Assembly: GCA_045546695.1 (NCBI GenBank)
Contig: JAZQDE010000052.1
Span: 797 to 64,796, forward strand
DNA: 64,000 bases
Origin: Clostridia bacterium
Lineage (GTDB): Bacteria; Bacillota; Clostridia; UBA1212; UBA1255
Reading direction: 5' to 3'
The translations under genes were made by a program, and so were the position numbers. Below the pieces are notes generated by a model. The model was given only the letters and a program-made list of their open reading frames with translations. It did not search any database and was not told where the DNA came from. Below, one piece after another: positions 4,275-64,000 of the stretch. Position 1 is the stretch's first letter. Every line of letters begins with the position of its first letter.

Positions 4275-4278
4275 AAAT

Positions 4279-7373: not shown

Positions 7374-7377
7374 ATCT

Positions 7378-7433: not shown

Positions 7434-7437
7434 TTAT

Positions 7438-7998: not shown

Positions 7999-8019
7999 AT
8001 CTCTCACCTCCTTACAATG

Positions 8020-8080
8020 AAAAAAGGAGACACAAAAGAACGCTTCCCATTTTCCAGGCGCCCTTTCGCATCTCCATCAC
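8020..8080 (-). promoter_or_regulatory. Leader terminator/attenuator upstream of glpP (probable GlpP target)
   Basis: Minus-strand RNA GGAGAUGCGAAAGGGCGC pairs over 18 bp (including G-U) with GCGUUCUUUUGUGUCUCC and is followed by UUUUUU. It lies between the promoter and the glpP RBS. Confidence 0.75.
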
Positions 8081-8092
8081 TCGCATATTGTG

Positions 8093-8121
8093 ATGATATA
8101 ACTAATTATATGAAAAGTCAA
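8093..8121 (-). promoter_or_regulatory. Sigma-A promoter of the glpP operon
   Basis: TTGACT-17 bp-TATCAT on the minus strand. Confidence 0.65.
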
Positions 8122-8129
8122 TATTTCAT

Positions 8130-8158
8130 TTGACTATATCTACTTGTAAAGTTAAAAT
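8130..8158 (+). promoter_or_regulatory. Sigma-A promoter of the 8188-10654 operon
   Basis: TTGACT-17 bp-TAAAAT. Confidence 0.7.
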
Positions 8159-8187
8159 ATTATATGATTATTCAATAAGGTGATTAT

Positions 8188-9018: not shown

Positions 9019-9021
9019 TTT

Positions 9022-11332: not shown

Positions 11333-11342
11333 AATAAAAACA

Positions 11343-11457
11343 CTCCTTCTCCCGTCCGGACTGTACCGTCGGCTCCGGAATTTGACCGGATCAACCTGCC
11401 ATGCAGGCTCGCGGGCTATACCGCCGGTGAGGATTTGCACCTCGCCCTGAAGACTAT
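11343..11457 (-). ncRNA. FMN riboswitch (RFN element)
   Basis: Minus strand TCTTCAGGGCGAGGTGCAAATCCTCACCGGCGGTATAGCCCGCGAGC...GATCCGGTCAAATTCCGGAGCCGACGGTACAGTCCGGACGGGAGAAGG matches the RFN consensus. Confidence 0.96.
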
Positions 11458-11460
11458 GTC

Positions 11461-11567: not shown

Positions 11568-11596
11568 TTGCATCGTTTATATATGTATGATACGAT
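11568..11596 (+). promoter_or_regulatory. Probable sigma-A promoter inside the cassette
   Basis: TTGCAT-17 bp-TACGAT, 34 nt upstream of the ATG at 11631. Confidence 0.55.
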
Positions 11597-11630
11597 AAAA
11601 AAATCAACTCAACTTAAAAGGAAGGTCATT

Positions 11631-13112
11631 ATGAAAAATCCTAACGTTATTAATATTGACTTAGCCACCGATATTGCCACCGCAAAATTGCGCGCAAATT
11701 ACGGCAACCCCGCTACAGGCTATTTAGAACCCCAAGCAGACGAGCTTCGTGCTAAAATTTTGAACTCTCCGAATACCGAAGAAATTTACGAAATAAAGGG
11801 GACTAAATACTATGTTTCGGCTAACGGTAACGACGAAAATGATGGTCTTTCTCCTGAAAAGGCAATTTGCTCGATTGATGCCATTGAAAAGCTTCCTTTA
11901 AAGGAAGGTGACGCCGTGCTTTTCGAACGCGGAAGCATTTTCCGTTTTGGTCGCACACTTAATACCACAAACGGTGTTACCTACGGCTCTTACGGCGAAG
12001 GTATGAAGCCTAAGATTTTCGGCTCGCCCGAAAATTATGCCGAAAATGACAGTTGGGTAGAAGTTAAGCCAAACATTTGGCAAATTGCTTTCGATTACCC
12101 TTATGCCAGTGGTTGTATACTTGACTATGGTATGGTTGCAGGCATTCAAAAGTGGAAGGGTATAGACACAATGGAAGCAAACGGCGACTACTACCACGAC
12201 CTTGAAAGCAAGGTTTTCCACCTTTACTGCGACCAAGGCAAGCCTAGTGAAGTTTACCACGATATTGAAATTATGCCCACCGTTTATCTTTTCTTTATGC
12301 GCGGTGCCGAAAACAATATAGTTGATAACATTTGCTTTAAATATACTTCTGCTTTCGCTATTTTTGCACCCGATGCCAAAAGCAACGTTACCATTACAAA
12401 CTGCGAAATTGGTTACATCGGCGGCCTTTGGGTAGGCGGTAAAATCGGTCGGCTTCGCTACGGTAACGCTATCGAAATTTGGGCAGGTATCCCCGGTCTT
12501 GTAATTGAAAACGTTATGGTTAAAAACAACTGGTTCTACCAGACCTATGATAGCGCTCTCACCTGGCAGGGCGACCAAAAGGGTACTGTTTATAGAGACA
12601 TCACATATACCGAAAACCTTTTTGAATATAACAATGCCGATATTGAATTTTTTGACCAAGATACCTCTGTGCTTGAAAACTTCGTAATATCCAAAAACCT
12701 TATGCGCTTTACAAGTATGGGTTGGGGCACCCGCACAAACGACGGTGGTATCCGTGGTATTGAAGGCTGCATCCGTGCTGTTACAGGCAGTTACAGAAAG
12801 AAGGATGACAATTGGGTTAAGAGTGAAATGGACGTTAAAAGTGCATACTTCACCGATAACACTATGGACTCCCCCGCACGCCAAATCATTAACTGGAACG
12901 TTATCCCCCGCCAAAAAGCAAACATTCACGCTTCGGGCAGTACAATCTACGTTAAAAGCGAGTATCGCACCCTTGTTCCCTGTCTTCAAGGCTTGCAGGA
13001 AAATATGTATGACGAGCATTACAACATCCGCTTTGCCGATAACAAGCAAGAGTTAGAAGAAATGCTCCAAAAATTTGAAAAAGGCGCCAAAATTTATTGG
13101 GACGGCGAATAA
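11631..13112 (+). CDS. Right-handed parallel beta-helix (pectin-lyase-like) protein, no signal peptide
   Basis: YYVSANGNDENDGLSPEKA, GDAVLFERGS, ITNCEIGYIGG, GNAIEIW, VKNNWFYQTYD and YTENLFEYN repeats; RBS AAGGAAGG before the ATG at 11631. Confidence 0.75.
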   Translation: MKNPNVINIDLATDIATAKLRANYGNPATGYLEPQADELRAKILNSPNTEEIYEIKGTKYYVSANGNDENDGLSPEKAICSIDAIEKLPLKEGDAVLFERGSIFRFGRTLNTTNGVTYGSYGEGMKPKIFGSPENYAENDSWVEVKPNIWQIAFDYPYASGCILDYGMVAGIQKWKGIDTMEANGDYYHDLESKVFHLYCDQGKPSEVYHDIEIMPTVYLFFMRGAENNIVDNICFKYTSAFAIFAPDAKSNVTITNCEIGYIGGLWVGGKIGRLRYGNAIEIWAGIPGLVIENVMVKNNWFYQTYDSALTWQGDQKGTVYRDITYTENLFEYNNADIEFFDQDTSVLENFVISKNLMRFTSMGWGTRTNDGGIRGIEGCIRAVTGSYRKKDDNWVKSEMDVKSAYFTDNTMDSPARQIINWNVIPRQKANIHASGSTIYVKSEYRTLVPCLQGLQENMYDEHYNIRFADNKQELEEMLQKFEKGAKIYWDGE

Positions 13113-13314: not shown

Positions 13315-13353
13315 AGCCAATTGGAAAATCAAATATCAACGGGAGTTATTTTA

Positions 13354-14478
13354 ATGGAACAACATACAAATTATAACAGTTTACATAAAGACGAACTATA
13401 CAAGGGACGCTTGCCCCAAGATATTCTTTCCAATCCCAATTATTCAATTTTTCCGGGTTTTATTGATGTTCACGTACATCTTAGGGAGCCCGGTTTTTCA
13501 TATAAAGAAACAATTGCAACAGGTACACGGGCAGCACTTGCCGGCGGATACAGCGGTGTAGCTTCGATGCCGAATCTTAACCCAGTCCCAGACAGCATTG
13601 ATAACCTAAACGTTCAACTCGATATTATAAAAAAAGATGCACTTACTCAGGTATATCCTTTTGCATCAATTACAAAAGGACAAAAGGGGCTTGAGCTTTC
13701 TGATGTTGGCGGTTTACATAATATGGTAATCGGTTTTTCAGATGACGGCAGAGGCGTACAGAGCGACGATATGATGGAAAAAGCTATGAAAGAAGTCAAG
13801 AAATACGACTCAATTATCGCAGCTCACTGTGAAGTAGATAGCCTTGCCCCCACCCCAGAGAGCGAATATCTGCAGCTTGAGCGCGACCTTAAATTAGTAA
13901 ATACAATAAATGTCAGATATCATATGTGCCATTGCTCAACCAAAGAGTCTGTTAACCTCATAAGACAGGCAAAAGCTGCCGGACTTCCCGTAACGTGCGA
14001 AACTGCCCCACACTACCTGATTTTCACGGAAAAAGACGTACAAGACAGCGGAAACTACAAAATGAACCCGCCTATCCGTACGCAAAAAGATAAAGAAGCG
14101 CTTATTGAAGCCATCTGCGACGGAACAATTGATATGATTGCCACAGACCACGCTCCTCATAGCAAGGAAGAAAAATCAAAAGGTTTCGCAGGCAGTCTGA
14201 ACGGCATAGTCGGACTCGAAACGGCTTTCCCGCTGCTTTATACGCACCTCGTAAAGACTCAAGTGATTACACTTGACAAGCTTATCCAATTAATGTCAAT
14301 CAATCCGCGCGAAGTATTCCGCATCAAAAACGACGGACTGTGCGCATTTGACCTGAATCAGAAGTATACAATCAACCCTGATGCCTTTATGACAATGGGC
14401 AGAAGCTGCCCGTACGGAGGCATGGAAGTATATGGCAAACATATAGCAACATCTGTAAAAGGAGCGACCAATGAATAA
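13354..14478 (+). CDS. pyrC: Dihydroorotase (type I, compact)
   Basis: PGFIDVHVHLREPG, MPNLNP, FSDDG, HCE, YHMCHCST, KMNPPIR and ATDHAPH; ATG at 13354 follows RBS GGGAG. Confidence 0.93.
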   Translation: MEQHTNYNSLHKDELYKGRLPQDILSNPNYSIFPGFIDVHVHLREPGFSYKETIATGTRAALAGGYSGVASMPNLNPVPDSIDNLNVQLDIIKKDALTQVYPFASITKGQKGLELSDVGGLHNMVIGFSDDGRGVQSDDMMEKAMKEVKKYDSIIAAHCEVDSLAPTPESEYLQLERDLKLVNTINVRYHMCHCSTKESVNLIRQAKAAGLPVTCETAPHYLIFTEKDVQDSGNYKMNPPIRTQKDKEALIEAICDGTIDMIATDHAPHSKEEKSKGFAGSLNGIVGLETAFPLLYTHLVKTQVITLDKLIQLMSINPREVFRIKNDGLCAFDLNQKYTINPDAFMTMGRSCPYGGMEVYGKHIATSVKGATNE

Positions 14479-15208
14479 TTACACCGTAAAAAGCAATGTA
14501 AATATCGCAAAAGACGTTTACAAAATGATATTAGAAGGCGACGTTTCAAAAATCACCTCGCCCGGCCAGTTTATAAACATCACAATCGACGGTCTGTATT
14601 TAAGACGCCCGATTTCCGTATGTGATATCGGTGAAAATACGATAACTATCATCTACAAAGTTGTCGGCGAAGGCACAGCGAAAATGAGCGGTATGAAAGA
14701 AGGCACAGTACTTGACTGCCTGACAGGACTTGGAAACGGTTTTGGCACACAAATCAAACCGGACTGCAACAAACCTCTGCTCATCGGCGGCGGAGTGGGC
14801 ACTCCCCCTTTATACATGCTTGCAAAAAAACTTCTTAAAGAAGGCAAGCAGCCAAAAGTAATTCTCGGATTTGCATCAAAAGACGACTGTTTCTACGAAG
14901 AAGAATATAAAGCGCTCGGCCTTGAAGTTGAAGTTATGACTGCTGACAGCAGCTACGGTGGCAAGGGTTTTGTAACGAACGCAAAGCTTTTCACGGATAA
15001 AGATTATGACTACATTTATACATGTGGACCGATACCGATGCTCAAGGCAATTTATGACAATTCAGAAGTGTCCGGCCAGTTCTCTTTCGAAGAGCGTATG
15101 GGATGCGGCTTCGGCGCCTGCATGGGATGCTCATGCAAGACAAAATACGGAAACAAACGCATCTGCAAAGACGGCCCTGTGCTGGTTAAGGAGGAAATAA
15201 TATGGTAA
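14471..15208 (+). CDS. pyrK: Dihydroorotate dehydrogenase B electron-transfer subunit
   Basis: PGQFINI, LRRPISV, IGGGVGTPP and EERMGCGFGACMGC...CKDGPV. Confidence 0.95.
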   Translation: MNNYTVKSNVNIAKDVYKMILEGDVSKITSPGQFINITIDGLYLRRPISVCDIGENTITIIYKVVGEGTAKMSGMKEGTVLDCLTGLGNGFGTQIKPDCNKPLLIGGGVGTPPLYMLAKKLLKEGKQPKVILGFASKDDCFYEEEYKALGLEVEVMTADSSYGGKGFVTNAKLFTDKDYDYIYTCGPIPMLKAIYDNSEVSGQFSFEERMGCGFGACMGCSCKTKYGNKRICKDGPVLVKEEIIW

Positions 15209-16113
15209 ATACTAAAGTAAACCTGTGCGGCATAACGATAGACAACCCGATAATACCCGCCAGCGGATGTTTCGGCTACGGAAAAGAATTTTCAGAATTC
15301 TACGACATAAATATGCTCGGCACGTTCTCCTTCAAGGGCACGACTAAGGAGCCAAGATTTGGTAACCCTACTCCCCGTATTGCGGAGACTCCGTCAGGAA
15401 TGATTAATTCAGTCGGCCTCCAGAATCCGGGCGTTGACACAGTAATCAGCCGCGAACTTAAAGAAATGCCTGAATACTTCAATAAAAAGGTAATAGCAAA
15501 CATCAGTGGCTTTTCACAGGAAGAATATGTATATTGCGTAGAGCGCATAAGCCGCGAAGATCAGGTAGGCTGGGTTGAGGTAAATATCAGCTGCCCTAAT
15601 GTTCACGGCGGCGGTATGAGCTTCGGCGTAAACCCCGACAGCGCATACGAAATAACAAAAGCAGTCAAAGAAGTTTCAACAAAGCCTGTTATTATCAAGC
15701 TGTCACCTAACGTTACAGACATCGCAGCGATCGCAAAAGCATGCGAAGACGGTGGTGCGGACGGCATATCATTAATAAATACAATTCTTTCAATGAGAAT
15801 TGACATCGCAAAGAGAAAACCAATTCTTGCCAATACATTCGGCGGCCTGTCAGGAAGCTGCGTGCTGCCTGTTGCGCTCAGAATGGTTTATCAGGTATAT
15901 AACGCGGTAAAAATTCCAATTATTGGCATGGGCGGCGTTACGACAGCAAAAGATGTTTTAGAAATGATGCTTGCAGGTGCGACGGCAGTTCAGGTCGGCG
16001 CAGCAAACCTGATTAATCCCTATGCCTGCAAGGAAATAATCGAAGAATTACCAATTCTTATGGAAAAATATAAAATCAACAGTTTAGAAGACATTATAGG
16101 AGGAGCACACTAA
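15202..16113 (+). CDS. pyrD: Dihydroorotate dehydrogenase B catalytic subunit
   Basis: ASGCFG, KGTT, NSVGLQNPG, EVNISCPN, KLSPNVT, LINT and GGLSG. Confidence 0.95.
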   Translation: MVNTKVNLCGITIDNPIIPASGCFGYGKEFSEFYDINMLGTFSFKGTTKEPRFGNPTPRIAETPSGMINSVGLQNPGVDTVISRELKEMPEYFNKKVIANISGFSQEEYVYCVERISREDQVGWVEVNISCPNVHGGGMSFGVNPDSAYEITKAVKEVSTKPVIIKLSPNVTDIAAIAKACEDGGADGISLINTILSMRIDIAKRKPILANTFGGLSGSCVLPVALRMVYQVYNAVKIPIIGMGGVTTAKDVLEMMLAGATAVQVGAANLINPYACKEIIEELPILMEKYKINSLEDIIGGAH

Positions 16114-16808
16114 TGGGAAAAGATGTAATTATCGCCTGCGACTTTGCGTCAAAAAAAGACACACTTGAGTTTCTGGACAAATTTACTGATGTAAAGCCTT
16201 TCGTTAAAATCGGAATGGAACTTTATTATGCAGAAGGTCCTGATATTGTAAGAGAAATCAAAGCAAGAGGACACAAGATTTTCCTCGACCTTAAGATGCA
16301 TGATATACCAAATACTGTAAAAAAAGCTATGCGCTCTATCGCATCATTCGGTGTTGATATGACAAACGTACACGCAGGTGGCGGCATCGCAATGATGCAG
16401 GCTGCTATGGAAGGTCTGGACGGCAAAGCTATTCTGATTGCCGTGACACAGCTTACTTCAACAAGCGCCGAGACACTCAAAAATGAGCTCCTTATCGATG
16501 CTTCAATGAACGACACAATTCTCACCTACGCAATCAACGCCAGCAAAGCAGGACTCGGCGGCGTAGTATGCTCACCACTTGAGAGCACAATGATTCACGA
16601 ACATTTCACAAAGGAAAACATTCCTTTTATAACAGTTACACCGGGAATCCGTTTCGCAGACAGCAGCAAAGATGACCAGTCACGCATCACAACACCTGCC
16701 GTTGCAAAAGAAATGGGTTCAGATTACATCGTAGTCGGCAGGCCGATTACTCAGGCACAAGACCCTGTCGCAGCTTACAAAAGATGCGTAGCAGAATTTG
16801 TAGATTAA
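16113..16808 (+). CDS. pyrF: Orotidine-5'-phosphate decarboxylase
   Basis: FLDLKMHDIPNT, AVTQLTS, VTPGIR and VVGRPIT. Confidence 0.96.
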   Translation: MGKDVIIACDFASKKDTLEFLDKFTDVKPFVKIGMELYYAEGPDIVREIKARGHKIFLDLKMHDIPNTVKKAMRSIASFGVDMTNVHAGGGIAMMQAAMEGLDGKAILIAVTQLTSTSAETLKNELLIDASMNDTILTYAINASKAGLGGVVCSPLESTMIHEHFTKENIPFITVTPGIRFADSSKDDQSRITTPAVAKEMGSDYIVVGRPITQAQDPVAAYKRCVAEFVD

Positions 16809-16823
16809 TGGAGGATTTTCACA

Positions 16824-17462
16824 ATGAAAGAACAAATTGCACTTGACTTATTAACTATCGGCGCCGTTTTCCTGCGCCCTGACCAGCCTTTCACATGGGC
16901 AAGCGGCATTAAAAGCCCTATTTACTGCGACAACCGTCTCACGCTCACCTCTCCTGAGGTACGCACACACGTAGAGACAGGCCTGGCTCAGCTTATCCGT
17001 GAAAATTATCCTGAAGCAGAAGTCCTCATGGGCACTTCTACAGCAGGCATCGCACACGCTGCAATCACAGCACACATGATGAACCTTCCCATGGGTTACG
17101 TTCGCTCCGGCGCAAAAGACCATGGCAGAAATAACCAGATAGAGGGAAAACTCCTCCCCGGCCAGAAGGTTGTAGTTGTTGAAGATCTCATCTCAACAGC
17201 CGGCAGTTGCATCGATGTTGTAGAGATTTTAAGAGAAGCCGGCGCCGAAGTGCTCGGTATCGTAAGCATCGTAACGTACGGCCTTAAGAAAGGCATTGAG
17301 CGTCTTGAAAAAGCTAATGTAAAGAATATCAGCTTGACAAACTTTGATACAATTGCAAAAGTTGCAGCTGACAAAGGCTTCATCGCACAAGACGACATTG
17401 CAAGAGTAATCGCCTTCCGCAACAACCCTTCAGATGAAAGCTGGATGAGAGGTAATAACTAA
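16824..17462 (+). CDS. pyrE: Orotate phosphoribosyltransferase
   Basis: [14 protein letters not shown] and [13 protein letters not shown]. Confidence 0.96.
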
Positions 17463-18379
17463 TGAGACACGTACTTGATATTACAGATTTATCAGTTAGC
17501 GAGATAGAAGAGCTCATTAATGTAGCACAGGATATTATTGCAAATCCGGATGACTACCGCGAAGTGTGTAAACATAAAAAGCTTGCCACCCTTTTCTTCG
17601 AGCCAAGCACAAGAACACGCCTTAGTTTTGAAGCTGCAATGTTAGACCTCGGCGGAAACGTACTTGGTTTCTCATCTGCCAACTCTTCCTCCTCTGCCAA
17701 AGGCGAGAGTGTTGCAGATACAGTACAGACAGTAAGCTACTACGCAGACATCATCGCTATGCGCCATCCAAAAGAAGGCGCTCCGCTGGCTGCTTCTTAC
17801 GTTTCAAACGCACCGATTATAAATGCGGGCGACGGCGGTCACTGCCACCCGACACAGACGCTGACTGACCTACTTACTATCTACCGTGAAAAAGGCCACC
17901 TCAGCAATATGACGATCGGTTTTTGCGGCGACCTCAAATTCGGCCGCACCGTACACTCACTTGTTACGGCTTTATCAAGATACGAAGGCTTTAAATTCGT
18001 ATTTATTTCACCGAGCGAGCTTATGATCCCCGGCTACGTAAAGGCAAACGTACTTGATAAAAACGGTCTTAGCTATATTGAAACAGAATCTCTTACAGAC
18101 GTAATGCCCGAGCTTGACATTCTCTACATGACAAGAGTACAGGGCGAGCGCTTTTTCAACGAAGAAGACTATATCAGACTCCGTGATAAATATATCCTCT
18201 CCCCTGACAAGCTTACGAATGCCAAGGATGATCTTGCAATCCTGCATCCCCTGCCGCGAGTAAACGAGATTGCCCGTTCAATCGACAAAGACCCGCGCGC
18301 ATGCTACTTCAAGCAGGTACAAAATGGTAAATTTATCAGAATGGCTCTCATAATGAAGCTTCTGGGCCTGAGCAAATAA
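17462..18379 (+). CDS. pyrB: Aspartate carbamoyltransferase catalytic subunit
   Basis: [34 protein letters not shown] and [10 protein letters not shown]. Confidence 0.97.
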
Positions 18380-33917: not shown

Positions 33918-35031
33918 TTATTTATTTTTATTGTACTCGAAGGCAAGATAGCTGTTTATAAAGCCATCGATGCCGCCGTCCATTACTTTTGTGATGTTAC
34001 CTTCTTCGTAACCTGTACGTCTGTCGTTTACGAGTGTGTATGGACAGAATACGTATGACCTTATCTGGCTGCCCCATGCAATTTCCATCTGAACACCCTT
34101 AAGATCTGATATCTTTTCAACGTTTTCACGCTGCTTTGCTTCAAAGAGTTTTGAACGGAGCATTTTCATTGCGCGCTCTTTGTTTTGAAGCTGTGAACGT
34201 TCGTTCTGGCAGGCAACTGTGATACCTGTAGGTTTGTGAACGATTCTTACGGCTGAGTCAGTCTTGTTGATATGCTGACCGCCTGCACCACTTGATCTGT
34301 ATGTGCCGATTTCGAGGTCTTCAGGTCTGATATCAATTTCGATATCATCGTCAATTTCCGGAAGAAGCTCTACTGAAACAAATGACGTGTGGCGTCTGCC
34401 GGCTGAGTCAAATGGTGAAATACGTACAAGACGATGTACGCCATGCTCGCTCTTTAAAAAGCCGTAAGCGTTGTCACCTTCGAAACGTATAACTGCACTC
34501 TTGAGACCTGCTTCATCGCCGTCGAGATATTCAACAACCTCAACCTTGTAATCGTGATCCTCTCCCCAGCGCATATACATACGCATAAGCATAGAAGCCC
34601 AATCCTGAGATTCTGTACCACCTGCTCCGGGGTGAATACTCATGATGGCGTTATTCGCATCGTATTCGCCGCTGAGCAGCGTCTCAAGTCTGAGCATCGT
34701 AAATGCCGATTTGAAAGCCTCTATCTCTGCCTGTACCAACTCTACTGCACTCGTATCATTTTCTTCGTTTGCAAGCATGATAGTAAGCTGAATTTCTTCA
34801 TATTTGTTTTCCAGCTCTGTGAATTTTTCAATCTTTGTTTTAAGCTGTTTTAAGTGTCTGAGTGTCTTTTGTGACTCCTTCTGGTCATCCCAGAAACCGG
34901 GCTCTGAAGCTTTTGCTTCTAATTCACCGATTAACTTCTTGATGCCATCTGTGTCAAAGTGAATCCCTCAGTTCGTTTAAGTTTTTTAATAAACTGTCAA
35001 GTTCTAAAGAGAACTGGTCAAGTTCAAACAT
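33918..35031 (-). CDS. prfB: Peptide chain release factor 2 with programmed +1 frameshift
   Basis: The short first frame MFELDQ...ELRDSL ends at CTT-TGA-C (34959-34953). The second frame has GGTESQDWA, SPF and SSGAGGQHINKT. Confidence 0.96.
34953..34968 (-). promoter_or_regulatory. prfB +1 frameshift signal
   Basis: AGGGATTCA-CTT-TGA-C: an internal SD-like AGGG 5' of the CUU UGA C slippery site. Confidence 0.93.
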
Positions 35032-43127: not shown

Positions 43128-44162
43128 TTACTTTGTATAAACGCAGAATTCGTAGAAGCTGCCCCACGCTCCGCCGGCTCTTCTGTATCTGATGAATCTT
43201 GCGCTCTCGTTTATATTAGTTATCTCGTAAGGCTCCACTACACTGTCAAGAGGATAACCTTCTTCAATAACTTTATACTCGCCGTCAATTGTGTCACAAA
43301 TCTCAATAACGAATTCAGACTGGCATGACTCAAAGTGGATAGTTATTGAATCCAGATCATATACCTGACCCAAGTCGAGAGTCCATGTAATCACTGTCTC
43401 TGTAGTGCCCGGCATTGGTGCCCAACGTGTAAGAATATCGCCGTCTATAGCAAACTCCGGCAGATATTTTTCACTTTCAGGCGCATTATCTGATGTAGCT
43501 GTCTTGCCAAGGGCAATATTACCTTCTGTTTCTGTATCCTCTTCAGCTACCATATTCTCGTTATACTCGAAGATATCCATTTCCCAGATACTACAAAAAC
43601 CTGTATACTCTGTTGTGAACATTACGTATCTTGCCTTTGTCTTCGGAACAACGAATTCATCATAAAGTTCAGCCGGTGCTTTTCTTGTAGTAAGAAGTTG
43701 CCATTCTGTGTCGGCTTCTGTCTTGTACATTATTTTATATGGATTCTGTAATGATTCAAACAGGATATTGATCTCACCGATTTCATACTCAGCACCAAGG
43801 TCAACTTCGAGCTTGCGCCAGCCGCTCTCATCAGAGTAGGTGCCGATACCGCTCCAACGTGTCGTCTCATCATCGTCAATAGCATACTCCGCATCATACA
43901 TTTCTTCAGTAACGTTTGCTGTAATAGTTACATTCTCACCTTCTGTAAGGTCATTGTATCTGATTGGTTCAGGTGTAGGTGTCGCATTCGGGTCCTCTGT
44001 GGGTGCCGCGGTCGGAACAGGTGTGGGTGCCTTTGTAGGTGCTGTAGTAGGCTTTGATGCCGGCTCTTCAGATGAATCGCCGCAGCCGACGAAACAACCA
44101 AGTACAATAATCATAGATAATAACAATGCTACGATTTTAAGTGTGCGGTTTATTTCTCTCAT
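43128..44162 (-). CDS. Lipoprotein with Pro/Thr stalk and two discoidin (F5/8 type C, CBM32-like) domains
   Basis: Lipobox FVGC; two repeats of AIDxD..TRW...L.(V/L)DLG..Y....I.I.FE...AR(Y/F)(V/I). Confidence 0.8.
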   Translation of the reverse strand: MREINRTLKIVALLLSMIIVLGCFVGCGDSSEEPASKPTTAPTKAPTPVPTAAPTEDPNATPTPEPIRYNDLTEGENVTITANVTEEMYDAEYAIDDDETTRWSGIGTYSDESGWRKLEVDLGAEYEIGEINILFESLQNPYKIMYKTEADTEWQLLTTRKAPAELYDEFVVPKTKARYVMFTTEYTGFCSIWEMDIFEYNENMVAEEDTETEGNIALGKTATSDNAPESEKYLPEFAIDGDILTRWAPMPGTTETVITWTLDLGQVYDLDSITIHFESCQSEFVIEICDTIDGEYKVIEEGYPLDSVVEPYEITNINESARFIRYRRAGGAWGSFYEFCVYTK

Positions 44163-44304
44163 AATCAATACCTTCCTGTATGTAGATTTTCTAGATAATA
44201 TCATTTTACAAACCATTCATTTTACTGTCAAGTAGCTTTTCTGCTTGAAGTTCTTTCATGATGTGATATACTTTAGCGGTAACACTTCATGAGGTGACAA
44301 AGAT

Positions 44305-45039
44305 ATGATTTCAATTGACAATATGATGAAAATAGAGACACATTCTCACACCAAGACGGTAAGTCCCTGCGGACATATCGAGCCTGAAAAAGTTGTTGAT
44401 GAATACATAAATGAAGGCTACGGCGCTATCATCATTACAGACCATTTTTCACGCAATATACTCTCAATATTTGAAGGCAATTATACAGATAAGATTGATT
44501 CCTACCTTGCCGGGTACAGATATTGCAAAGCTCATGCAAAAAAACGCGCAAAGGAAGGCGCTCCCCTTCTTAAGGTTATGCTCGGCGCTGAGATTCTTCT
44601 TGATACAAATCCTTCTGACATACTGCTTTTTGGTCTTACAGAAGACTTTTTCTATGAAAATCCGAACCTCTTTGACCTCGACCAGAAGGGCCTTTACGAG
44701 CTGCTTCACACCAAATACGACGCAGTGATGTATCAGGCACATCCTTTCAGAAAATATTGTAACCGTCAGAACCCTGCGTATCTTGATGGTGTAGAGGTTT
44801 ACAACGGAAATATGCGTCATGAAAACCACTCTGACGTCGCACTTCAATGGGCAAAGGATAACAACCTGCGCTTTAGCTCCGGCTCTGATTTTCACCAGAT
44901 GATGGATCTTGCCATGGGCGGCATGCTTGTGCCTGATTCGATTGAGAATATCCACCAGTTCAAGGATTATATAACAAACAATGACCCGTTATATATAGTT
45001 GACTCCGCGATTCAGGAGAAAGGCAATCTTAAAGTATGA
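44305..45039 (+). CDS. PHP-domain phosphoesterase
   Basis: ETHSHT, ITDH, GAE, QAHPFR, EVYNG and GSDFH metal motifs. Confidence 0.85.
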   Translation: MISIDNMMKIETHSHTKTVSPCGHIEPEKVVDEYINEGYGAIIITDHFSRNILSIFEGNYTDKIDSYLAGYRYCKAHAKKRAKEGAPLLKVMLGAEILLDTNPSDILLFGLTEDFFYENPNLFDLDQKGLYELLHTKYDAVMYQAHPFRKYCNRQNPAYLDGVEVYNGNMRHENHSDVALQWAKDNNLRFSSGSDFHQMMDLAMGGMLVPDSIENIHQFKDYITNNDPLYIVDSAIQEKGNLKV

Positions 45040-46898
45040 AAAAGCCACGGATAAAAAACAAGAAGAATCCTGTTCTTGCGCTCGTATATTGCGCGATGCT
45101 CGCATCTATGAGCATCGTACTTTCGCGTTATCTGTCAATATCTGTCGGAATGGGAATCAGAATCAGCCTTGGTAATCTACCTATTATATTATCCGGACTT
45201 ATGTTTGGTCCTTTCGCAGGTGCGGCCGTTGGCTTTGCAGCCGACTTTATAGGTGCTACAGTGCTCACAGGCACAACGCCGGCAAATTACAATCCTTTCC
45301 TTATGGCAGGACCGATTCTGATGGGTATCCTCCCCTGGCTTGTGCGCGTCATATTCTACGGTAAAAAGCGCGTAAAACACACTCTGCCGGCGCTTGCTTC
45401 CATTACTCTTATTACACATATGTGCACATCGGTGCTCATCACAACACCGATACTCAACTATTTCTTTATGAATTTTGAAGGTGTTGCTTTCTGGTCATTT
45501 CTGGGAACACGCGCGCTAATTTATGCCGCAACAGCAATCGTTGAAGCAGTTGCAATCTTTGCCCTTCTCAAGGCACGCGCTGTGAAAATAAAAAATATGA
45601 CGCCGGGATACAAGATGTCATACGAAGCGACCACTACGTATATTCATTCCGTAAGCTGGAAAGGCAGCCGTCTTGGCCTTAGCAGAATCACAGAACTTAT
45701 GCAGAAGCTTGGAAATCCTCAGGATTCTCTTAAATTCGTTCACGTTGCCGGCACAAACGGCAAAGGTTCCGTCTGCTCAATGGTAAATTCTGTATTGCTC
45801 GAAGCAGGATATACGGTCGGTTTGTTTACGTCCCCTTACATGTATCGTTTTAACGAAAGAATTCAGCTTAATTCCGAGCCGATATCAGACGAAGATCTGG
45901 CAGAAGTCACCTCCTACGTGCGTGCTTTTGCAGATGAAATGAAAGATTCCCCTACTGAATTTGAGCTTATCACCGCAATTGCCCTTGAATATTTCAAACG
46001 CAAAGAATGCGACGTCGTTGTTTTTGAAGTCGGCATGGGCGGATTGCTCGATTCTACAAACGTTATATCTACCCCACTCGTGTCGGTTATTACAAAAATT
46101 GACATGGACCACGTAAAGGAGCTCGGACCTACGCTCGCTGATATCACACGTGCCAAAGCAGGTATTATCAAAGACGGTGGTATAGTCGTTGCAACGGCCG
46201 ACCCGACAGGCGTTATAAAAGAGACTGTAGCTTCCAGAAATTGTCAGCTTTTCACGATGGATGACGATGCCATTGAGGTTATAGAATCTTCTGTGTGCGG
46301 CAATACGATAAATTATAAGAATTACAAAAATATTACAGTTCCACTTGCCGGTATTTACCAGGCAACAAACACAGCTATCGCCCTTGAGGTGCTCACAGTC
46401 CTTCGCGGAATGCTTAATATTTCACTTGAAAATATCGTTACAGGCTTAGAAAACGTTAGCTGGCCGGGCAGATTTGAGATAATGAAAAAAGAGCCTCTTT
46501 TCCTGTATGACGGCGCTCACAATATGCATGGCCTTAACGCAACACTTGCAAGTCTTGACAAATATTTCCAGGGCCGCAAGTTCATCGTTCTTACAGGAAT
46601 GATGGCTGACAAAGATGTGACACACATGGTTGAGCTTCTTGCCACTTGCTGCCAAAAAGTTGTCACGACTCGTCCTGACAACCCAAGGGCCCTTGATCCT
46701 GCAGAGCTTGCCGACAAGTTCAGGGCTACAAAGGCATGCTCAGGCGGCGCCTTTTCACCTGACGACGTGTATGTTACCGGAAATATCCATGACGCCATAA
46801 TCAAAGCGCATGAGATTGCCGGTGAAAATGATATAATTTGTGCATTAGGTTCACTTTATATGTATAAAGATATAAAAGGAGAGTTAAAAAATGATTAA
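45036..46898 (+). CDS. folC: Fusion of a folate-family ECF S component (about aa 1-185) and folylpolyglutamate synthase/dihydrofolate synthase FolC (about aa 194-620)
   Basis: The N-terminal TM region has IRISLGNLPIILSGLMFGPFAGAAVGFAADFIG (FolT). The C-terminal region has VAGTNGKGS, FTSPY..FNERI, EVGMGGLLDSTNV, WPGRFE, DGAHN and GSLY. No stop codon lies between them. Confidence 0.9.
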   Translation: MKKPRIKNKKNPVLALVYCAMLASMSIVLSRYLSISVGMGIRISLGNLPIILSGLMFGPFAGAAVGFAADFIGATVLTGTTPANYNPFLMAGPILMGILPWLVRVIFYGKKRVKHTLPALASITLITHMCTSVLITTPILNYFFMNFEGVAFWSFLGTRALIYAATAIVEAVAIFALLKARAVKIKNMTPGYKMSYEATTTYIHSVSWKGSRLGLSRITELMQKLGNPQDSLKFVHVAGTNGKGSVCSMVNSVLLEAGYTVGLFTSPYMYRFNERIQLNSEPISDEDLAEVTSYVRAFADEMKDSPTEFELITAIALEYFKRKECDVVVFEVGMGGLLDSTNVISTPLVSVITKIDMDHVKELGPTLADITRAKAGIIKDGGIVVATADPTGVIKETVASRNCQLFTMDDDAIEVIESSVCGNTINYKNYKNITVPLAGIYQATNTAIALEVLTVLRGMLNISLENIVTGLENVSWPGRFEIMKKEPLFLYDGAHNMHGLNATLASLDKYFQGRKFIVLTGMMADKDVTHMVELLATCCQKVVTTRPDNPRALDPAELADKFRATKACSGGAFSPDDVYVTGNIHDAIIKAHEIAGENDIICALGSLYMYKDIKGELKND

Positions 46899-47934
46899 AG
46901 AGCGTTTATTTGACCGTTCAGAAGATGGTAGCGAGATTATTTGCTACCGTATCGAAAACTCAACTTCATACGTTGAGATTCTCAATTACGGCGGAATTAT
47001 CCGTGCAATTGTTGTGCCTGACAAAGACGGAAATCTTACCGACGTTGCTATCGGAATGGACAGCATTCAGGGCTATAAAGACTATCATGGCTCATATTTC
47101 GGAGCACTCATCGGCAGATGTGCCAACAGAATCGGCGCAGGCAAATTTACATTAAATGGCAAAGATTATCAGGTTGCTTTAAACGACGGCGCAAATCACC
47201 TCCATGGTGGTATGAAGGGATACGAATCCTATATCTGGGAAGTTGATCCTTACGATGCAGATTCCGATACACTCGTACTTCACCACTTTGACCCGGATAT
47301 GCGTGAAAATTATCCCGGAAACGTAAAGATTACTGTTACCTACTCTTTCACAGAAAACAGCGAGTTGATTATTGATTACAAAGCTGTATCAGATGCAGAC
47401 ACAGTATTCAATCCTACAAACCACGCTTATTTCAACCTCAACGGCGCAGGCAGTGGCGATATTTACGGCCATTATCTGGAAATCAACGCTGATTATTTCA
47501 CACCTGTAAACTCAGCTTGTCTGCCGACAGGAGAAGAAAAGCCCGTTACTCCTGCAATCAGCTTCAAGCCCGGCAAAAAAATCGGCGATGGTCTTATCGG
47601 CTGCGCTGATGACCCTGATATCGTTGCAGGCGGCGGATATGACTGCAACTACGTACTCGGCGATAACGGCAAGATGAAAAAAGCTGCCACAGCAATCGGC
47701 GACGTAAGCGGCATAAAGATGGAAGTTTACACAACACAGCCCGGCGTTCAGCTTTATTCAGGCAACTTCATGTCTGATAACATCCCGGGAAAAGATGGCA
47801 AAATCTACAATTATCGTACTGCATTTTGCTTAGAAACACAGTTTGCACCTGACAGCATCAACCACCCCGACTGGGACAGCCCGATTCTGCGTGCAAACGA
47901 GCCCTGTCACTACATTACAAAGTACGTTTTCTGA
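46891..47934 (+). CDS. galM: Aldose 1-epimerase (galactose mutarotase)
   Basis: GRCANRI, NHLHGG, NPTNHAYFNL, YTTQPGVQLYSGN and CLETQ. Confidence 0.94.
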   Translation: MIKERLFDRSEDGSEIICYRIENSTSYVEILNYGGIIRAIVVPDKDGNLTDVAIGMDSIQGYKDYHGSYFGALIGRCANRIGAGKFTLNGKDYQVALNDGANHLHGGMKGYESYIWEVDPYDADSDTLVLHHFDPDMRENYPGNVKITVTYSFTENSELIIDYKAVSDADTVFNPTNHAYFNLNGAGSGDIYGHYLEINADYFTPVNSACLPTGEEKPVTPAISFKPGKKIGDGLIGCADDPDIVAGGGYDCNYVLGDNGKMKKAATAIGDVSGIKMEVYTTQPGVQLYSGNFMSDNIPGKDGKIYNYRTAFCLETQFAPDSINHPDWDSPILRANEPCHYITKYVF

Positions 47935-48050: not shown

Positions 48051-49061
48051 ATGGCAGTAAAAGTTGCTATTAACGGTTTCGGTAGAATTGGACGTCTTGC
48101 TTTCAGACAGATGTTCGACGCAGAAGGTTATGAAGTTGTTGCTATCAACGACTTAACAAGCCCTAAGATGCTTGCTCACCTTCTTAAATATGATACAGCT
48201 CAAGGTAGATATGATGGTCACACAGTTGATTTTGATGATAACTCAATCACAGTAGATGGCAAAAAGATTTCTATCCTCGCTGAAAAAGACGCAGCTAACC
48301 TTCCTTGGGGTGCTTACGATGTAGACGTTGTATTAGAGTGCACAGGTTTCTACACATCAAAGGAAAAGGCAAGCGCACACATCGCTGCCGGCGCTAAGAA
48401 AGTTGTTATTTCTGCTCCTGCAGGCAATGATCTTCCTACAATCGTTTATGGCGTTAACGAAGGCACATTAACAAAAGAAGATACAGTTATTTCAGCTGCT
48501 TCATGCACAACAAACTGTCTCGCTCCTATGGCTAAAGCTCTTAACGACTACGCTCCTATCCTCAGCGGTATCATGACAACTGTTCACGCTTACACAGGCG
48601 ACCAGATGACTCTTGATGGTCCTCAGAGAAAAGGCGACCTTCGTCGTTCACGTGCTGCAGCTGCTAACATCGTTCCTAACTCAACAGGCGCAGCTAAAGC
48701 TATCGGTCTTGTAATTCCTGAGCTCAACGGCAAACTCATCGGTTCTGCACAGAGAGTTCCTACATTCACAGGTTCTACAACAATCCTCGTTGCAGTAGTA
48801 GAAGGCAATGTTACTAAAGAAGGTATCAACGCAGCTATGAAGGCAGCAGCTAACCAGTCATTCGGTTACAACGAAGATGAGATCGTTTCTTCTGATATCA
48901 TCGGTATCAAATATGGTTCACTCTTTGATGCTACACAGACAATGGTAACAAAGATTGATGACAACCTTTCACAGGTACAGGTTGTTTCTTGGTATGACAA
49001 CGAAAACTCATACACAAGCCAGATGGTAAGAACAATTAAGTACTTCGCAGAACTTAACTAA
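48051..49061 (+). CDS. gap: Type I glyceraldehyde-3-phosphate dehydrogenase
   Basis: [19 protein letters not shown] and WYDNE; RBS GGAGG; promoter TTGTAT-17-TATAAT at about 47981-48009. Confidence 0.98.
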
Positions 49062-49076: not shown

Positions 49077-49108
49077 AGCGCCGTTCAATCCGAACGGCGC
49101 TTTTTTTT
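49077..49108. terminator. Bidirectional intrinsic terminator after gap
   Basis: AGCGCCGTTC-aatcc-GAACGGCGCT-TTTTTTT. Confidence 0.88.
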
Positions 49109-58869: not shown

Positions 58870-60521
58870 CTGTATAACTCCTTACTCTTAATTAGTCTGT
58901 ACAACATTTTCCTCGATACTATTGTGGCGACAGCCTCAATAATCAATGTCAGAACAATGACAAGTGCGATATTCTGTATCTTCCCAACCACGTAAAGCAC
59001 GGTGGGAATTATATATATTACTGTCAAAATAACGCACAAAACCAAAGCGATCATGCCGTTTGCATTTTGCTTTACGGCCTCTGCTTCTCTTGTCCAATAT
59101 ATTTTAGGTCTCGTAACATCGATAAAAGCACCGATGTAACTATACGAAAACAATGCAATTATACATATCACGATACCAATTATTACAGGCAAAAAGCTGA
59201 GTTTAAATAAAACTCCACCTATCGCCATCATAGTTATAACACAAACAAGATTGATAATCAAGGAGCAAGTGATTTTTGCCTTTATCTGCTCCTTGTACGA
59301 CACAGGAATAATCTGTGTAATCATGTAGTTGCCACCCTCGCGCGACACTGACGTTGATGCTACCATAGATAATGTAGACACCACCATCGTCACTGCCACA
59401 AGGATAGCTGCCACAACGTATTGGGCATTGATATTATTTTCCAGGAATTGTGTTATCATGCTGATAATATCATCGCCTTTTGTCGTCATATTATTGGTGC
59501 GAAGTCCGAGAATAATTATAAGAAGCGGCCCGATAATAACGTTCAGCACGCAATTGAGCATATATACCGGCGAGCGGAAAAGCATCCTGAATTCTTTTTT
59601 CAGAAGCGCCGTGCGTACAGATGATTTTGTATAATTTTTCTTCGTCTTATTTGCACTTGAAGCACTGTAGTAAAGCATTTCAGTTACTTTTTCATACAAT
59701 CTGCCGCCCGGATAATACATAATGACAAAAGACACAGCAAAAGTCACAAGTGAAATACCTGTGCCGATGAAAAAGTCGATGCCGCCTTTTAACATCATAT
59801 TGTACGATAAAATGTTTATCATGTACTTTCCGAGACCCTCGATTATGCCATTATTTGCCAGTAAAACGCCTGAAATGTCATCTTGTGTTACTGTTGTTCC
59901 GCCTGACGAGAAAACTGCATACAATACAAAGCATGCGACAACAAGAAGCAAACCCATAACAGTTGAGATTATTTCCTTATGCCTGAATCTTCCGGAAATT
60001 ACCATAATGCCAAACATTATAAACGTAGCGACAGTGCATGGCAGCGCCGGAAACAGGAGTGCGCCCAGCAGCATTTTCACCGTGAAAATAAGTGAAAAGC
60101 CTTCATAATATTGGTAAACGCTTGTAGCCGGAATTATTATTACCAACGCAGACAGTAGCGCGCTTACGTACATGACAACGTATGACGTCATGAAGATGTG
60201 TTCCCTTTTTATGGGAAGCGGCCTGAAGAATTCCTGCTCTTTGCCGTTGAACATCGTGTTGAAGGACGACAATATTATTGTGAAAAGTGATACAATCTGT
60301 GCAAAAAGCAGCGTAAAAGTCAGATATAATTCTTTTTCACCTGCCTGCCGGAAGCTTTTGTACATCATGCTCATCATGATTACATATGCAAAAATGAAGA
60401 GCGAAGCTATCAATAAAATAATAATGAGTCCTGCAAGACCGGCTACACTTATGCGCGCGGGTGCAGAGCCGAATTGATTCATTATTTTGAATCTTAAAAG
60501 TCGTAAAAACTTATTCACCAC
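58866..60521 (-). CDS. Putative ABC exporter permease (ABC-2 type, about 12-14 TM)
   Basis: Highly hydrophobic; LRPLPI-like EFFRPLPIK, KKEFRMLFRSP, SREG and IDVTRPKIYW motifs; coupled to the ATPase gene. Confidence 0.8.
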   Translation of the reverse strand: MVNKFLRLLRFKIMNQFGSAPARISVAGLAGLIIILLIASLFIFAYVIMMSMMYKSFRQAGEKELYLTFTLLFAQIVSLFTIILSSFNTMFNGKEQEFFRPLPIKREHIFMTSYVVMYVSALLSALVIIIPATSVYQYYEGFSLIFTVKMLLGALLFPALPCTVATFIMFGIMVISGRFRHKEIISTVMGLLLVVACFVLYAVFSSGGTTVTQDDISGVLLANNGIIEGLGKYMINILSYNMMLKGGIDFFIGTGISLVTFAVSFVIMYYPGGRLYEKVTEMLYYSASSANKTKKNYTKSSVRTALLKKEFRMLFRSPVYMLNCVLNVIIGPLLIIILGLRTNNMTTKGDDIISMITQFLENNINAQYVVAAILVAVTMVVSTLSMVASTSVSREGGNYMITQIIPVSYKEQIKAKITCSLIINLVCVITMMAIGGVLFKLSFLPVIIGIVICIIALFSYSYIGAFIDVTRPKIYWTREAEAVKQNANGMIALVLCVILTVIYIIPTVLYVVGKIQNIALVIVLTLIIEAVATIVSRKMLYRLIKSKELYR

Positions 60522-61248
60522 TGCCTCCGACTATATCAATAAACACATCCTCCAGTGTGGAATTGCCACTTTTTGCCTGCTCCTTGAGTTCATCTACCGT
60601 ACCGGTCGCCACAATAACGCCGTGCGAAATAATCGCCACTCTGTCGCATAATTTCTCAGCAACTTCCAGTACGTGTGTAGAAAAGAAGACAGTATTTCCC
60701 TGCTTGCAATGCTCGCGCATTTCTTCTTTAAGGCTATGCGCCGACATAGGGTCAAGCCCTACCATAGGCTCGTCCAAAATCCATAAATCGGGATTATGTA
60801 TGAGCGCACCGGTAAGTACGATTTTTTGTCTCATTCCATGTGAAAAGCTCTTAATTCTGTCATTCAGAGCATTTTGTATATCAAACATTGTGGAATATTT
60901 CTGTATTCTGTCTTGTCTGTCCTGAGTAGAAACGCCGTATATATCTGCTATAAATTCCAGATATTCCATTGCAGTGAGTCTTTCGTACACGTCGGGGTTA
61001 TCCGGAACGTATCCGAATTTCTTTTTATAATTTATTGGATCTTTTTGTATATCGATGCCATCTATGAGTATTTGTCCCATCGTAGGCTCGATGATACCTG
61101 CAATCATTTTTATCGTGGTACTCTTGCCTGCTCCGTTCGGCCCCAAAAAGCCGAAAATCTCGCCTTTGTTTACTTTGAGGCTGATATTGCTTACTGCTGC
61201 GACTTTGCGTTTATCATAATATTTTGTCAGATTTTTGAGTTCAAGCAT
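60511..61248 (-). CDS. ABC transporter ATP-binding protein
   Basis: GPNGAGKST, FSHGMRQK, ILDEP and STH. Confidence 0.95.
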   Translation of the reverse strand: MLELKNLTKYYDKRKVAAVSNISLKVNKGEIFGFLGPNGAGKSTTIKMIAGIIEPTMGQILIDGIDIQKDPINYKKKFGYVPDNPDVYERLTAMEYLEFIADIYGVSTQDRQDRIQKYSTMFDIQNALNDRIKSFSHGMRQKIVLTGALIHNPDLWILDEPMVGLDPMSAHSLKEEMREHCKQGNTVFFSTHVLEVAEKLCDRVAIISHGVIVATGTVDELKEQAKSGNSTLEDVFIDIVGGSGE

Positions 61249-62867: not shown

Positions 62868-64000
62868 TTACATCGTAAGTTCGTAACATTCGAGTAGCTT
62901 CTCTTCTATAGAAGTCTTTTCGCTGTCGAGTTCGGAAAGCTTTACATAATCTGCCTGATTTTCTTCGAGTGTAAGTAGTTCCTCAATCTCTTCAAGGCGT
63001 TTTTCCAACACAACTATCTGCTCCGCTGCTCTCTTTCTGGCAGTTTCCATTTTGCGCTTGTCCGAAGCCGCTTTTTTTGCTTCCTCATATGCGATTTTAG
63101 CGTCTGTCACCTCGTTTTTCTGTTCTTCTTCCTGAATTTCGCCACTCATAGCCGCGTAATCTGAAATATTGATCATTCTGGTTGACAATTTCTGTATAAA
63201 ATATCTGTCGTGTGAAACGGCAATCAACGTGCCTTTGTATTCGCTCAGTGCGTTTTCCAGAGCCTCTTTTGAGCCTATATCAAGGTGGTTTGTGGGCTCA
63301 TCAAGTACGAGTACATTGTTCTTACGCAGAATCAGCTTTGCAAGTGTGAGCCTTGCCTTTTCACCGCCGGACAGCACGCTCACGCTCTTGTTTACGTCGT
63401 CACCTTTGAAAAGGAATTGTGCCAGCGCCGAGCGGACCTGAGTAAGTGTATGAGTCCTGTAATATTCTGACATTTCGTCAAGAACTGTGTTTGCCGGGTT
63501 CAGGTTCTGATTTTCCTGATCATAGTAGCCAATGCTGACGTTATATCCCCAGTAAACGCGGCCGGACGTAGGTGTCAGGCGGCCATTCAATATTTTCATA
63601 AGTGTACTCTTGCCGCTGCCGTTTTTACCGGTGATAAAAACAAATTCGCCTTTGCGTACCTGAAAATTCAGATTTTCAAATATTGTTTTTGTGTCAAAAC
63701 TTTTAGACAACTTCGACACGCTCAGAACGTCATTTCCACTCTCTCTGCCGGCATCAAAGCTCAGTCTGATGAGTTCGGGAAGCGCGTTCGGGGCATCAAT
63801 TTTTTCCATCCTGTCCAGATACTTCTGGCGGCTTTCCGCTGCAACAATGTTGTGCTCCCTGTTCCATTTGTGCTGGAGCGTAATAAAATCCTCTATGCGT
63901 TTTATTTCCTTTTGCTGGTTTTCGTAATGATGCTGCTGAATCTCGCGGTCTTTAGCCTTTTGTGTGACATACGACGAATAATTTCCATTATATAGCTTGC
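62868..64000 (-). CDS. ABC-F family ATPase; 5' part lies outside the window
   Basis: The frame is open to the window edge (LYNGNYSSY..linker). Second NBD GKNGSGKST, LSGGEKAR, LDEPTNHLD and SHDRYF; C-terminal coiled coil. Confidence 0.92.
   Translation of the reverse strand, partial: KLYNGNYSSYVTQKAKDREIQQHHYENQQKEIKRIEDFITLQHKWNREHNIVAAESRQKYLDRMEKIDAPNALPELIRLSFDAGRESGNDVLSVSKLSKSFDTKTIFENLNFQVRKGEFVFITGKNGSGKSTLMKILNGRLTPTSGRVYWGYNVSIGYYDQENQNLNPANTVLDEMSEYYRTHTLTQVRSALAQFLFKGDDVNKSVSVLSGGEKARLTLAKLILRKNNVLVLDEPTNHLDIGSKEALENALSEYKGTLIAVSHDRYFIQKLSTRMINISDYAAMSGEIQEEEQKNEVTDAKIAYEEAKKAASDKRKMETARKRAAEQIVVLEKRLEEIEELLTLEENQADYVKLSELDSEKTSIEEKLLECYELTM

Follow-up and report, generated by a model that had tools for sequence, protein, structure and literature searches.

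The question raised by a 64,000-nucleotide stretch of contig JAZQDE010000052.1 (the window), which comes from a Clostridia-type bacterium of the ruminant gut, is whether FolT, the folate-family substrate-binding (S) component of an energy-coupling factor (ECF) transporter, and FolC, the folylpolyglutamate synthase, are really encoded there as one protein, and what such a protein would do. The gene concerned, folT-folC, occupies 45036..46898 of the forward strand including its stop codon (the features of this locus given below lie on the same strand), and its open reading frame (ORF) and domain models describe a product of 620 residues and about 67.6 kDa. Our reading, to which we give a probability of roughly 0.7, is that this product is a folate-salvage protein, in which ECF-dependent uptake by the FolT domain, with the ECF module encoded elsewhere, is joined to polyglutamylation by a FolC domain tethered to the membrane. 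The gene itself is a divergent FolT-FolC fusion with a short linker and no riboswitch, belonging to an architecture that is common in Clostridia and unstudied.

The frame begins at ATG 45036 and stays open up to the stop at 46896-46898, as the initial annotation had read it, and both of its domains score above curated cut-offs. Residues 1-179 (45036..45572) form an S-component domain of the FolT family according to TIGR04518, an AlphaFold2 model and a profile search. They are followed by a basic linker of residues 180-193 (ARAVKIKNMTPGYK; 45573..45614), delimited by the alignment and predicted by the model to be coil, and by a complete FolC domain of residues 194-620 (45615..46895), recognized by TIGR01499, by alignment with 1FGS and by Foldseek. 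This anatomy of a FolT-type S component, a short basic linker and a complete FolC from the Met at 45615 had been proposed from the letters alone, and the domain models and the 1FGS alignment agree with it.

Fused and split relatives of this gene can differ by one stop codon, and an error of assembly or sequencing, such as a missed stop or a one-nucleotide indel between two adjacent genes, could mimic a fusion. Such an origin of the single ORF is hardly conceivable here. The region 45560-45620, which had been singled out for a check for a stop or an indel, is crossed by Logan contigs assembled from four runs, each of a different study (goat gut, faeces and gut metagenomes), with 0 gaps and no stop, and the substitutions listed for these contigs in or just upstream of the linker fall at third codon positions, with the exception of one Gly-to-Arg change. 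Moreover the cluster at 99% identity has 11 members, nearly all of them of 620 residues, and the orthologues at 99, 82 (locus L001), 74 (L088, L089) and 68% (L087) identity carry the same single ORF. The junction in L001, L087, L088 and L089 is that of the window, at equal length, and reads KIKNM(T/N)P(G/A)Y(K/R)MSYEATT. When the whole gene is compared with its 82% orthologue, the proportions of non-synonymous (pN) and synonymous (pS) differences are 0.113 and 0.743, with synonymous sites near saturation, and purifying selection is found on the FolT half, on the FolC half and on the linker. It is strong on the FolT half, with a ratio of non-synonymous to synonymous rates (dN/dS) of about 0.06. 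Codons 176-200 differ from L001 by 13 synonymous and 2 non-synonymous changes, so that the linker frame is translated and selected. Since the assemblies made independently in four studies, the orthologues and the substitutions all agree, the artefact explanation was dropped: the FolT-FolC single ORF is real and an assembly artefact is excluded.

The FolC half has the marks of a whole enzyme. TIGR01499 (folC) matches residues 215-614 with 357-359 bits (cut-off 162.65) and covers profile positions 1-397 of 400, and the Pfam models Mur_ligase_M and Mur_ligase_C both match this half. Met194 aligns with residue 1 of the Lactobacillus casei folylpolyglutamate synthase (FPGS) 1FGS (E 7.8e-70), so that FolC is complete from its own former N-terminus. 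The AlphaFold2 model, which was built on 40 fusion sequences (mean predicted local distance difference test, pLDDT, 88.7; predicted template modelling score, pTM, 0.73), retrieved FolC/FPGS entries at ranks 1-16 in Foldseek, with E values from 4e-32 to 4e-27 and target-normalised TM-scores of 0.84-0.90; among them were 2VOR, 1O5Z, 1W78 and 1JBW. The alignment places the P-loop GTNGKGS at residues 239-245 (45750..45770; L. casei G46-S52), and equivalents of L. casei G51/S52, S73, E143, K185, R300, D313 and H316 are all present, the last six as S266, E331, K374, R479, D492 and H495. Lys374 (46155..46157), within the motif RAKAGIIK, is aligned by 1FGS with L. casei Lys185, which we take to be the carbamylated active-site lysine; the catalytic roles of S73, E143, K185, R300, D313 and H316 are likewise those that we take from the L. 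casei literature. The P-loop and the catalytic residues are invariant in the 40 fusions. The equivalog models for bifunctional FolC stay below their cut-offs (245 vs 700 and 200 vs 360), which neither proves nor excludes dihydrofolate synthase (DHFS) activity. The L. casei FPGS (1FGS, 1JBV, 1JBW) and the T. maritima FolC (1O5Z) are matched over the full length (target-normalised TM-score 0.84-0.88), and the difference from them is that the FolC of the window is not a free soluble enzyme and is tethered to a membrane domain.

The FolT half matches TIGR04518, the model for folate-family ECF S components, with 88.5 bits over residues 15-180 (curated cut-off 60), and PF12822 (ECF_trnsprt) with 41.9 against a threshold of 30.7. 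A profile made of this half and its nearest relatives retrieved the FolT structures with E values between 7e-22 and 4e-17 (4HUQ_S 6.7e-22, 4Z7F 2.7e-21, 5D3M_C 2e-18), RibU with 1.8e-5 and BioY with 4.5e-4, while a search with the single sequence against the solved FolT proteins gave E values of 0.004-0.005 and about 19 bits, identity being low. Six helices are predicted by AlphaFold2 (residues 12-32, 47-57, 59-76, 87-108, 116-145 and 150-179), with coil over 180-195. Lys and Arg residues number six at the N-terminus, four in loop L4 and four in the linker, against one in L1 and none in L3 and L5; this positive-inside pattern puts the N- and C-termini of the domain and the linker in the cytoplasm, so FolC is on the cytoplasmic side, as its function requires. 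The published topology of FolT is the same, N-in/C-in (PMC4820897). Helix 1 carries the small-xxx-small motif A20-M-L-A-S24 (45093..45107), which corresponds in the alignment to the AxxxA motif by which S components dock on the coupling helices of EcfT (PMC4820897). Columns 20 and 24 are Ala in at least 90% of the relatives, and in the window the second position is taken by Ser, also a small residue (A20xxxS24).

Nine residues are in contact with folate in the FolT of Enterococcus faecalis (EfFolT), namely R26, K36, D64, F80, T81, N117, T121, R142 and K145 (PMC4525288). Kept in the window are R26 (R31), K36 (as Arg, R42), D64 (D70), T121 (T136) and R142 (R159), and N117 is conservatively changed to S132. 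According to the alignment, Asp70 (45243..45245) is the equivalent of EfFolT Asp64, which contacts N2 and N3 of the pterin, and Arg159 (45510..45512) that of EfFolT Arg142, which contacts the glutamate and aminobenzoate parts. Both are invariant in all fused FolT halves; Asp70 is also found in nearly all stand-alone FolT and Arg159 in most of them. The FolT proteins of group II ECF transporters (L. brevis 4HUQ, E. faecalis 4Z7F, and L. delbrueckii FolT1 and FolT2, 5D0Y and 5D3M) resemble the FolT half of the window in family, predicted fold and topology; they differ from it in that the window has F80, T81 and K145 replaced, carries a 427-residue enzyme at the C-terminus and is not accompanied by a tetrahydrofolate (THF) riboswitch.

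Good indirect evidence that the FolT-FolC family would handle folates comes from the riboswitches and the one-carbon (C1) context of the relatives. A THF riboswitch (RF01831, 39-96 bits) stands ahead of folT in 15 of 16 scanned relatives that are fused or have folT followed by folC, the exception being L024, where it is found further from folT on the upstream side, before a second folC. All five scanned database fusions have the riboswitch, and nine of ten scanned split loci have it ahead of folT. The order in L017 and L063 is folC, riboswitch, folT, which suggests that the riboswitch governs the transporter only; in these loci (L017, 2944-4968; L063, 2749-5051) it is found at about 4314-4422. 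In addition, the fused genes of L002 (a Christensenella metagenome-assembled genome, MAG; 3734-10499) and L090 (680-10151 of a 3.7-Mb contig, with a protein of a Feifaniaceae-named cluster) are placed inside a folate/C1 cluster with the order pterin-binding methyltransferase, corrinoid protein, RACo, MTHFR, fusion, FTHFS, FTCD_C-type cyclohydrolase and FolD. From the relatives we infer folate as the substrate in the lineage of the window also. Transport there would depend on an ECF module.

Where such a module might be encoded is suggested by a second S-component gene of the window (10655-11458, reverse strand; PF12822, 60.5 bits), which lies behind a flavin mononucleotide (FMN) riboswitch (RF00050, 106 bits, 11340-11458) with no ECF module adjacent. 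This second orphan suggests a shared ECF module elsewhere, and it is plausible that both orphan S components fit the group II arrangement, with the shared module at another place in the genome. The second S component is probably RibU-like; the GTG listed as its start (11440) is inside the riboswitch, and translation probably begins further downstream. Two ABC ATPase genes (60511-61248 and 62868-63809), the only ones in the window, were considered as parts of an ECF module and look unrelated to it.

In the mechanism that we propose, the six-helix FolT domain would bind extracellular folate, or a reduced or formylated folate, dock on the shared EcfAA'T encoded elsewhere, topple on EcfT and release the folate inside. 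The FolC domain would hang in the cytoplasm from the cytoplasmic end of helix 6 on the basic linker of 14 residues and, tethered in this way, would gamma-glutamylate the imported folate, which would then be kept in the cell and be a good cofactor. Polyglutamylation is established as the retention step for folate in L. casei and in mammalian cells. The tether would also ensure 1:1 expression of the two activities and set FolC at the point of entry. The coupling of uptake to trapping that the initial annotation had suggested would fit the THF riboswitches and the folate/C1 gene clusters of the relatives.

Several observations weigh against this folate-salvage reading. Three of the nine contacts of EfFolT are replaced in the window (F80 by L89, T81 by M90 and K145 by I162), and F80, which is not kept, is essential in EfFolT, where F80A abolishes binding, as are D64 and R142, which are kept (PMC4525288). 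The lineage of the window has neither the THF riboswitch nor the folate-gene neighbourhood on which the assignment of the relatives rests, no EcfAA'T genes are present in the 64-kb window, and it may be difficult to accommodate a 46-kDa domain, held only 14 residues from helix 6, next to EcfT and EcfAA' once the S component has toppled. To these are added two points discussed below, the retention of Met at the FolC start and the free interchange of fused and split genes.

The replaced contacts and the missing riboswitch, folate neighbourhood and ECF module would also suit a FolT-like domain that is no ECF-dependent transporter at all and is instead a membrane anchor, a solitary (ECF-independent) binder that brings FolC to the membrane, or a protein for a non-folate substrate; the very short linker, which could hinder toppling on EcfT, would fit this as well. 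We consider it quite unlikely, given the low dN/dS of the FolT half, the retention of D70, R159, R31, R42 and the docking motif of helix 1, and a TIGR04518 score above the curated cut-off. Moreover, the position of F80 is as a rule occupied by Leu, Ile or Phe in the riboswitch-linked relatives too, and that of K145 by a residue other than Lys, and for this reason the replacements look like a Clostridia-type branch of FolT and not like decay.

Whether one protein or two are made from the frame depends on the ATG at 45615. The pairing of the 20 nucleotides before it with the anti-Shine-Dalgarno sequence amounts to -4.1 kcal/mol, which lies inside the background of the ORF itself (20th percentile), against about -7 to -11 kcal/mol for the genes of the window with a clear Shine-Dalgarno (SD) sequence. 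The initial annotation had noted only a weak GGGA at this place, and the value, being within the background, bears this out. L001 no longer has the GGGA, a Pro codon there having changed synonymously, and of 113 fusions 93 have Met in the column of the FolC start, the other 20 having T, L, Q, K or E. A separately initiated FolC as the main product appears unlikely because of this weak pairing, the loss of the GGGA in L001 and the 20 fusions without Met.

The fusion could nevertheless be merely genetic, with separate FolT and FolC arising through an internal start at Met194 (or Met188) or through proteolysis of the linker, and with products functionally the same as those of a split folT-folC operon. 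The Met kept in 93 of the 113 fusions would be expected in that case and makes occasional internal initiation possible, the FolC half begins exactly at the ancestral residue 1, and close relatives interchange the fused and split states as if these were equivalent. We regard this explanation as unlikely in view of the weak SD pairing in comparison with the clear-SD genes, the GGGA that is not conserved in the 82% orthologue, the 20 fusions with another residue in place of Met, and the linker, whose 13 synonymous against 2 non-synonymous differences indicate purifying selection.

The architecture is not peculiar to the window. Among the best 120 database clusters (clustered at 90% identity, from NCBI, ENA, JGI and Logan), at least 112 have 592-673 residues, all with ECF_trnsprt followed by Mur-ligase domains. 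The taxa named for the fusions are MAGs of Oscillospiraceae/Ruminococcaceae, Christensenella, Feifaniaceae and Clostridiales, and fused single ORFs are also present in species-representative genomes of Faecousia (L007) and of a Lachnospiraceae MAG (L027). The latter locus (2576-4777) is an ORF of 734 codons from stop to stop, with FolT at 40-177, FolC at 275-665 and a linker of about 100 residues, far longer than the 11-30 found elsewhere; its upstream match to the THF riboswitch is partial (38.8 bits). All GenBank fusions carry the automatic name "folate family ECF transporter S component", for example MBE7002385.1 (Oscillospiraceae), MEA4913328.1 (Christensenella sp.), NLI53112.1, HWQ07148.1 (Feifaniaceae) and MEN6419459.1. 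The FolT-FolC fusion is thus widespread in Clostridia and already in the databases under one of its two functions, and its novelty is limited; a common architecture had been among the outcomes that the initial annotation named as counting against its finding. Its statement that folT and folC are normally separate is right for the characterised lactic acid bacteria and wrong for this part of Clostridia, with its 112 or more fused clusters. No description of a FolT-FolC fusion was found in full-text searches, which did not cover the two founding papers on FolT and ECF transporters, where a mention would be most likely.

The other Clostridia fusions share with the window gene the domain order, the length, a coil linker and the conserved FolC start. 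In the FolT half they are 23-36% identical to it and in the FolC half 43-50%, their linkers of 14-30 residues are unrelated in sequence, and L002 and L090 are in C1 clusters, whereas the lineage of the window is not.

Many relatives have folT and folC adjacent and split, including Faecalibacterium prausnitzii APC923/61-1 (L012). This species seemed by tblastn to carry a fusion and proved to have two ORFs in different frames; tblastn coverage can not tell fused from adjacent genes. Split operons such as those of F. prausnitzii and of the acetogen-like L005 have the same genes in the same order as the window and make two polypeptides, and orf2/folC of Streptococcus suis is another example (PMC4232619). 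The split junctions vary, some having spacers with their own SD, others an in-frame TAA CCT ATG and others ATGA overlaps, and the two genes are separated by a stop and 3-70 nucleotides or overlap as ATGA. With junctions as close as these, a fusion is one point mutation or indel away, and it would have arisen from the widespread folT-folC pair, usually under control of a THF riboswitch, by loss of the stop codon or the spacer. Recoding or read-through of the stop was considered for L008, L009 and L085, where one stop interrupts a frame common to both genes, and was rejected; these loci have a plain TAA followed by a normal ATG start. Tandem folC paralogues occur in L024 (1556-4819), L055 (2238-5471) and L070 (2941-5511), in the orders folC-folT-folC, folT-folC-folC and folC-folC, and may have divided DHFS from FPGS between them.

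Neighbour joining of 209 FolC domains (100 bootstraps) gives a tree in which the fused P0095 groups with the split F. prausnitzii (100%), the split L016 with three fusions (97%) and the split L010 with four fusions (88%), and in which two split loci are found within a clade of 32 fusions (98%). As judged from this tree, the fused or split state is labile within well-supported clades. Such free interchange would be expected if the fusion were nearly neutral and gives no sign of a mechanistic advantage, and it argues that the kinetic benefit of tethering, if any, is small.

The lineage of the window forms a clade of its own with 100% support. Stand-alone proteins match each of its halves with slightly higher scores than other fusions do; the nearest stand-alone FolC, that of L005, reaches 448 bits with the FolC half, for which the FolC halves of the other fusions stay at about 424 or below. 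This FolC of L005 lies 67 nucleotides behind a stand-alone FolT of 195 residues with a THF riboswitch, in a Wood-Ljungdahl cluster. The linker of the window, counted as 11 residues in this comparison against 14-30 in the other fusions compared, is the shortest and is unrelated to them in sequence. The separate clade, the stand-alone-like halves and the linker together give a hint that the lineage of the window was fused independently. An independent origin was not kept as a firm claim, the deeper nodes having 2-8% bootstrap support, at which the number of fusion events can not be stated.

A stronger version of the folate-salvage reading would make the tether itself functional. FolC would then stand where folate leaves the toppled FolT on the cytoplasmic side and take it directly while the binding site opens on EcfT, with channelling of the substrate and polyglutamylation pulling the transport cycle. 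We find this doubtful. If it were true, an S component could topple while carrying a cargo of 46 kDa, as the many natural fusions would show, and the lineage of the window, with no riboswitch and a short linker, would be the most tightly coupled variant. Uptake combined with metabolic trapping is known from other families, namely PnuC with NadR for nicotinamide riboside and the "vectorial acylation" of FATP; PnuC and NadR are separate proteins. The logic shared with the window is that the transporter hands its substrate to an enzyme that makes a charged, retained form of it.

FolT-FolC is a fusion of adjacent, functionally linked genes in the Rosetta-stone style and no new kind of system. By salvaging folate, gut anaerobes shape the cross-feeding of vitamins, and knowing which organisms import and trap folates helps metabolic reconstruction. 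The GenBank names, which give one function, mean that automated pathway calls can miss FolC, or the transporter where the other name is used. Moreover the natural pairs of fused and split genes are a ready comparison for asking if toppling of the S component tolerates or exploits a large cytoplasmic cargo.

Upstream of the fusion lies a gene for a PHP-domain protein of 244 residues (44305..45039), whose TGA overlaps the ATG of the fusion as ATGA, in accordance with the overlap described in the initial annotation. The start of the fusion has a weak SD of its own (-3.5 kcal/mol). An ATGA overlap at such a weak start suggests translational coupling, and the two genes are probably coupled, as far as can be judged from sequence; the arrangement is repeated in L001. 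The PHP gene is intact in the window and in L001, is represented by two small ORFs in L087 (838-1625) and is absent from L088 (1301-1585) and L089. Its protein matches RNase RNM, a HisJ-family phosphatase and a nucleoside bisphosphate phosphatase, all weakly and far below cut-off.

Downstream, the galactose/aldose 1-epimerase gene galM (46891..47934) overlaps the 3' end of the fusion by 8 nucleotides and is followed by the GAPDH gene gap (48051..49061). These two are conserved neighbours, with galM downstream of the fusion throughout the lineage of the window. The start of gap is likely ATG 48051, which stands behind a strong SD, GGAGG (-10.5 kcal/mol), whereas the listed TTG 48036 has none (+0.8 kcal/mol). 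In the terminator scan the first strong hairpin resembling an intrinsic terminator 3' of the fusion is located after gap (49077..49101), and gap is probably the last gene of the transcription unit. Metatranscriptome contigs of low depth cover the PHP/fusion boundary (44936-45183), the junction region (45393-45604 and 45597-45830) and the fusion/galM boundary (46825-47184).

The initial annotation had held that no THF riboswitch can lie directly upstream of the fusion, and Rfam scans of the whole window at the gathering score and of 43900-45700 at E up to 10 were negative. None was found in L001, L087, L088 and L089 either, the free 283-nucleotide leader of L088 and L089 included; a riboswitch upstream of the PHP gene or in this leader had been looked for as a candidate. 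Expression from this PHP-folTC-galM-gap unit is probably constitutive in the lineage of the window.

Three further features of the window are unrelated to the fusion. The release factor 2 gene prfB (PCRF and RF-1 domains) has a +1 programmed frameshift site, CTT TGA C, at 34953-34959 on the reverse strand; the first frame ends in LNELRDSL-stop and the reading resumes after the shift as DTDGIKKLIGELE. As the site is upstream of the listed ORF of 285 residues (33918-34778, reverse strand), that ORF is only the downstream part of prfB. Two ORFs overlap on opposite strands at 11568-13112 (forward, 514 residues) and 11898-13049 (reverse, 383 residues), the forward one having no Pfam match. A compact operon for pyrimidine biosynthesis is located at 13321-18379 on the forward strand and comprises dihydroorotase, a PyrK-like electron-transfer subunit, PyrD, PyrF, PyrE and PyrB.

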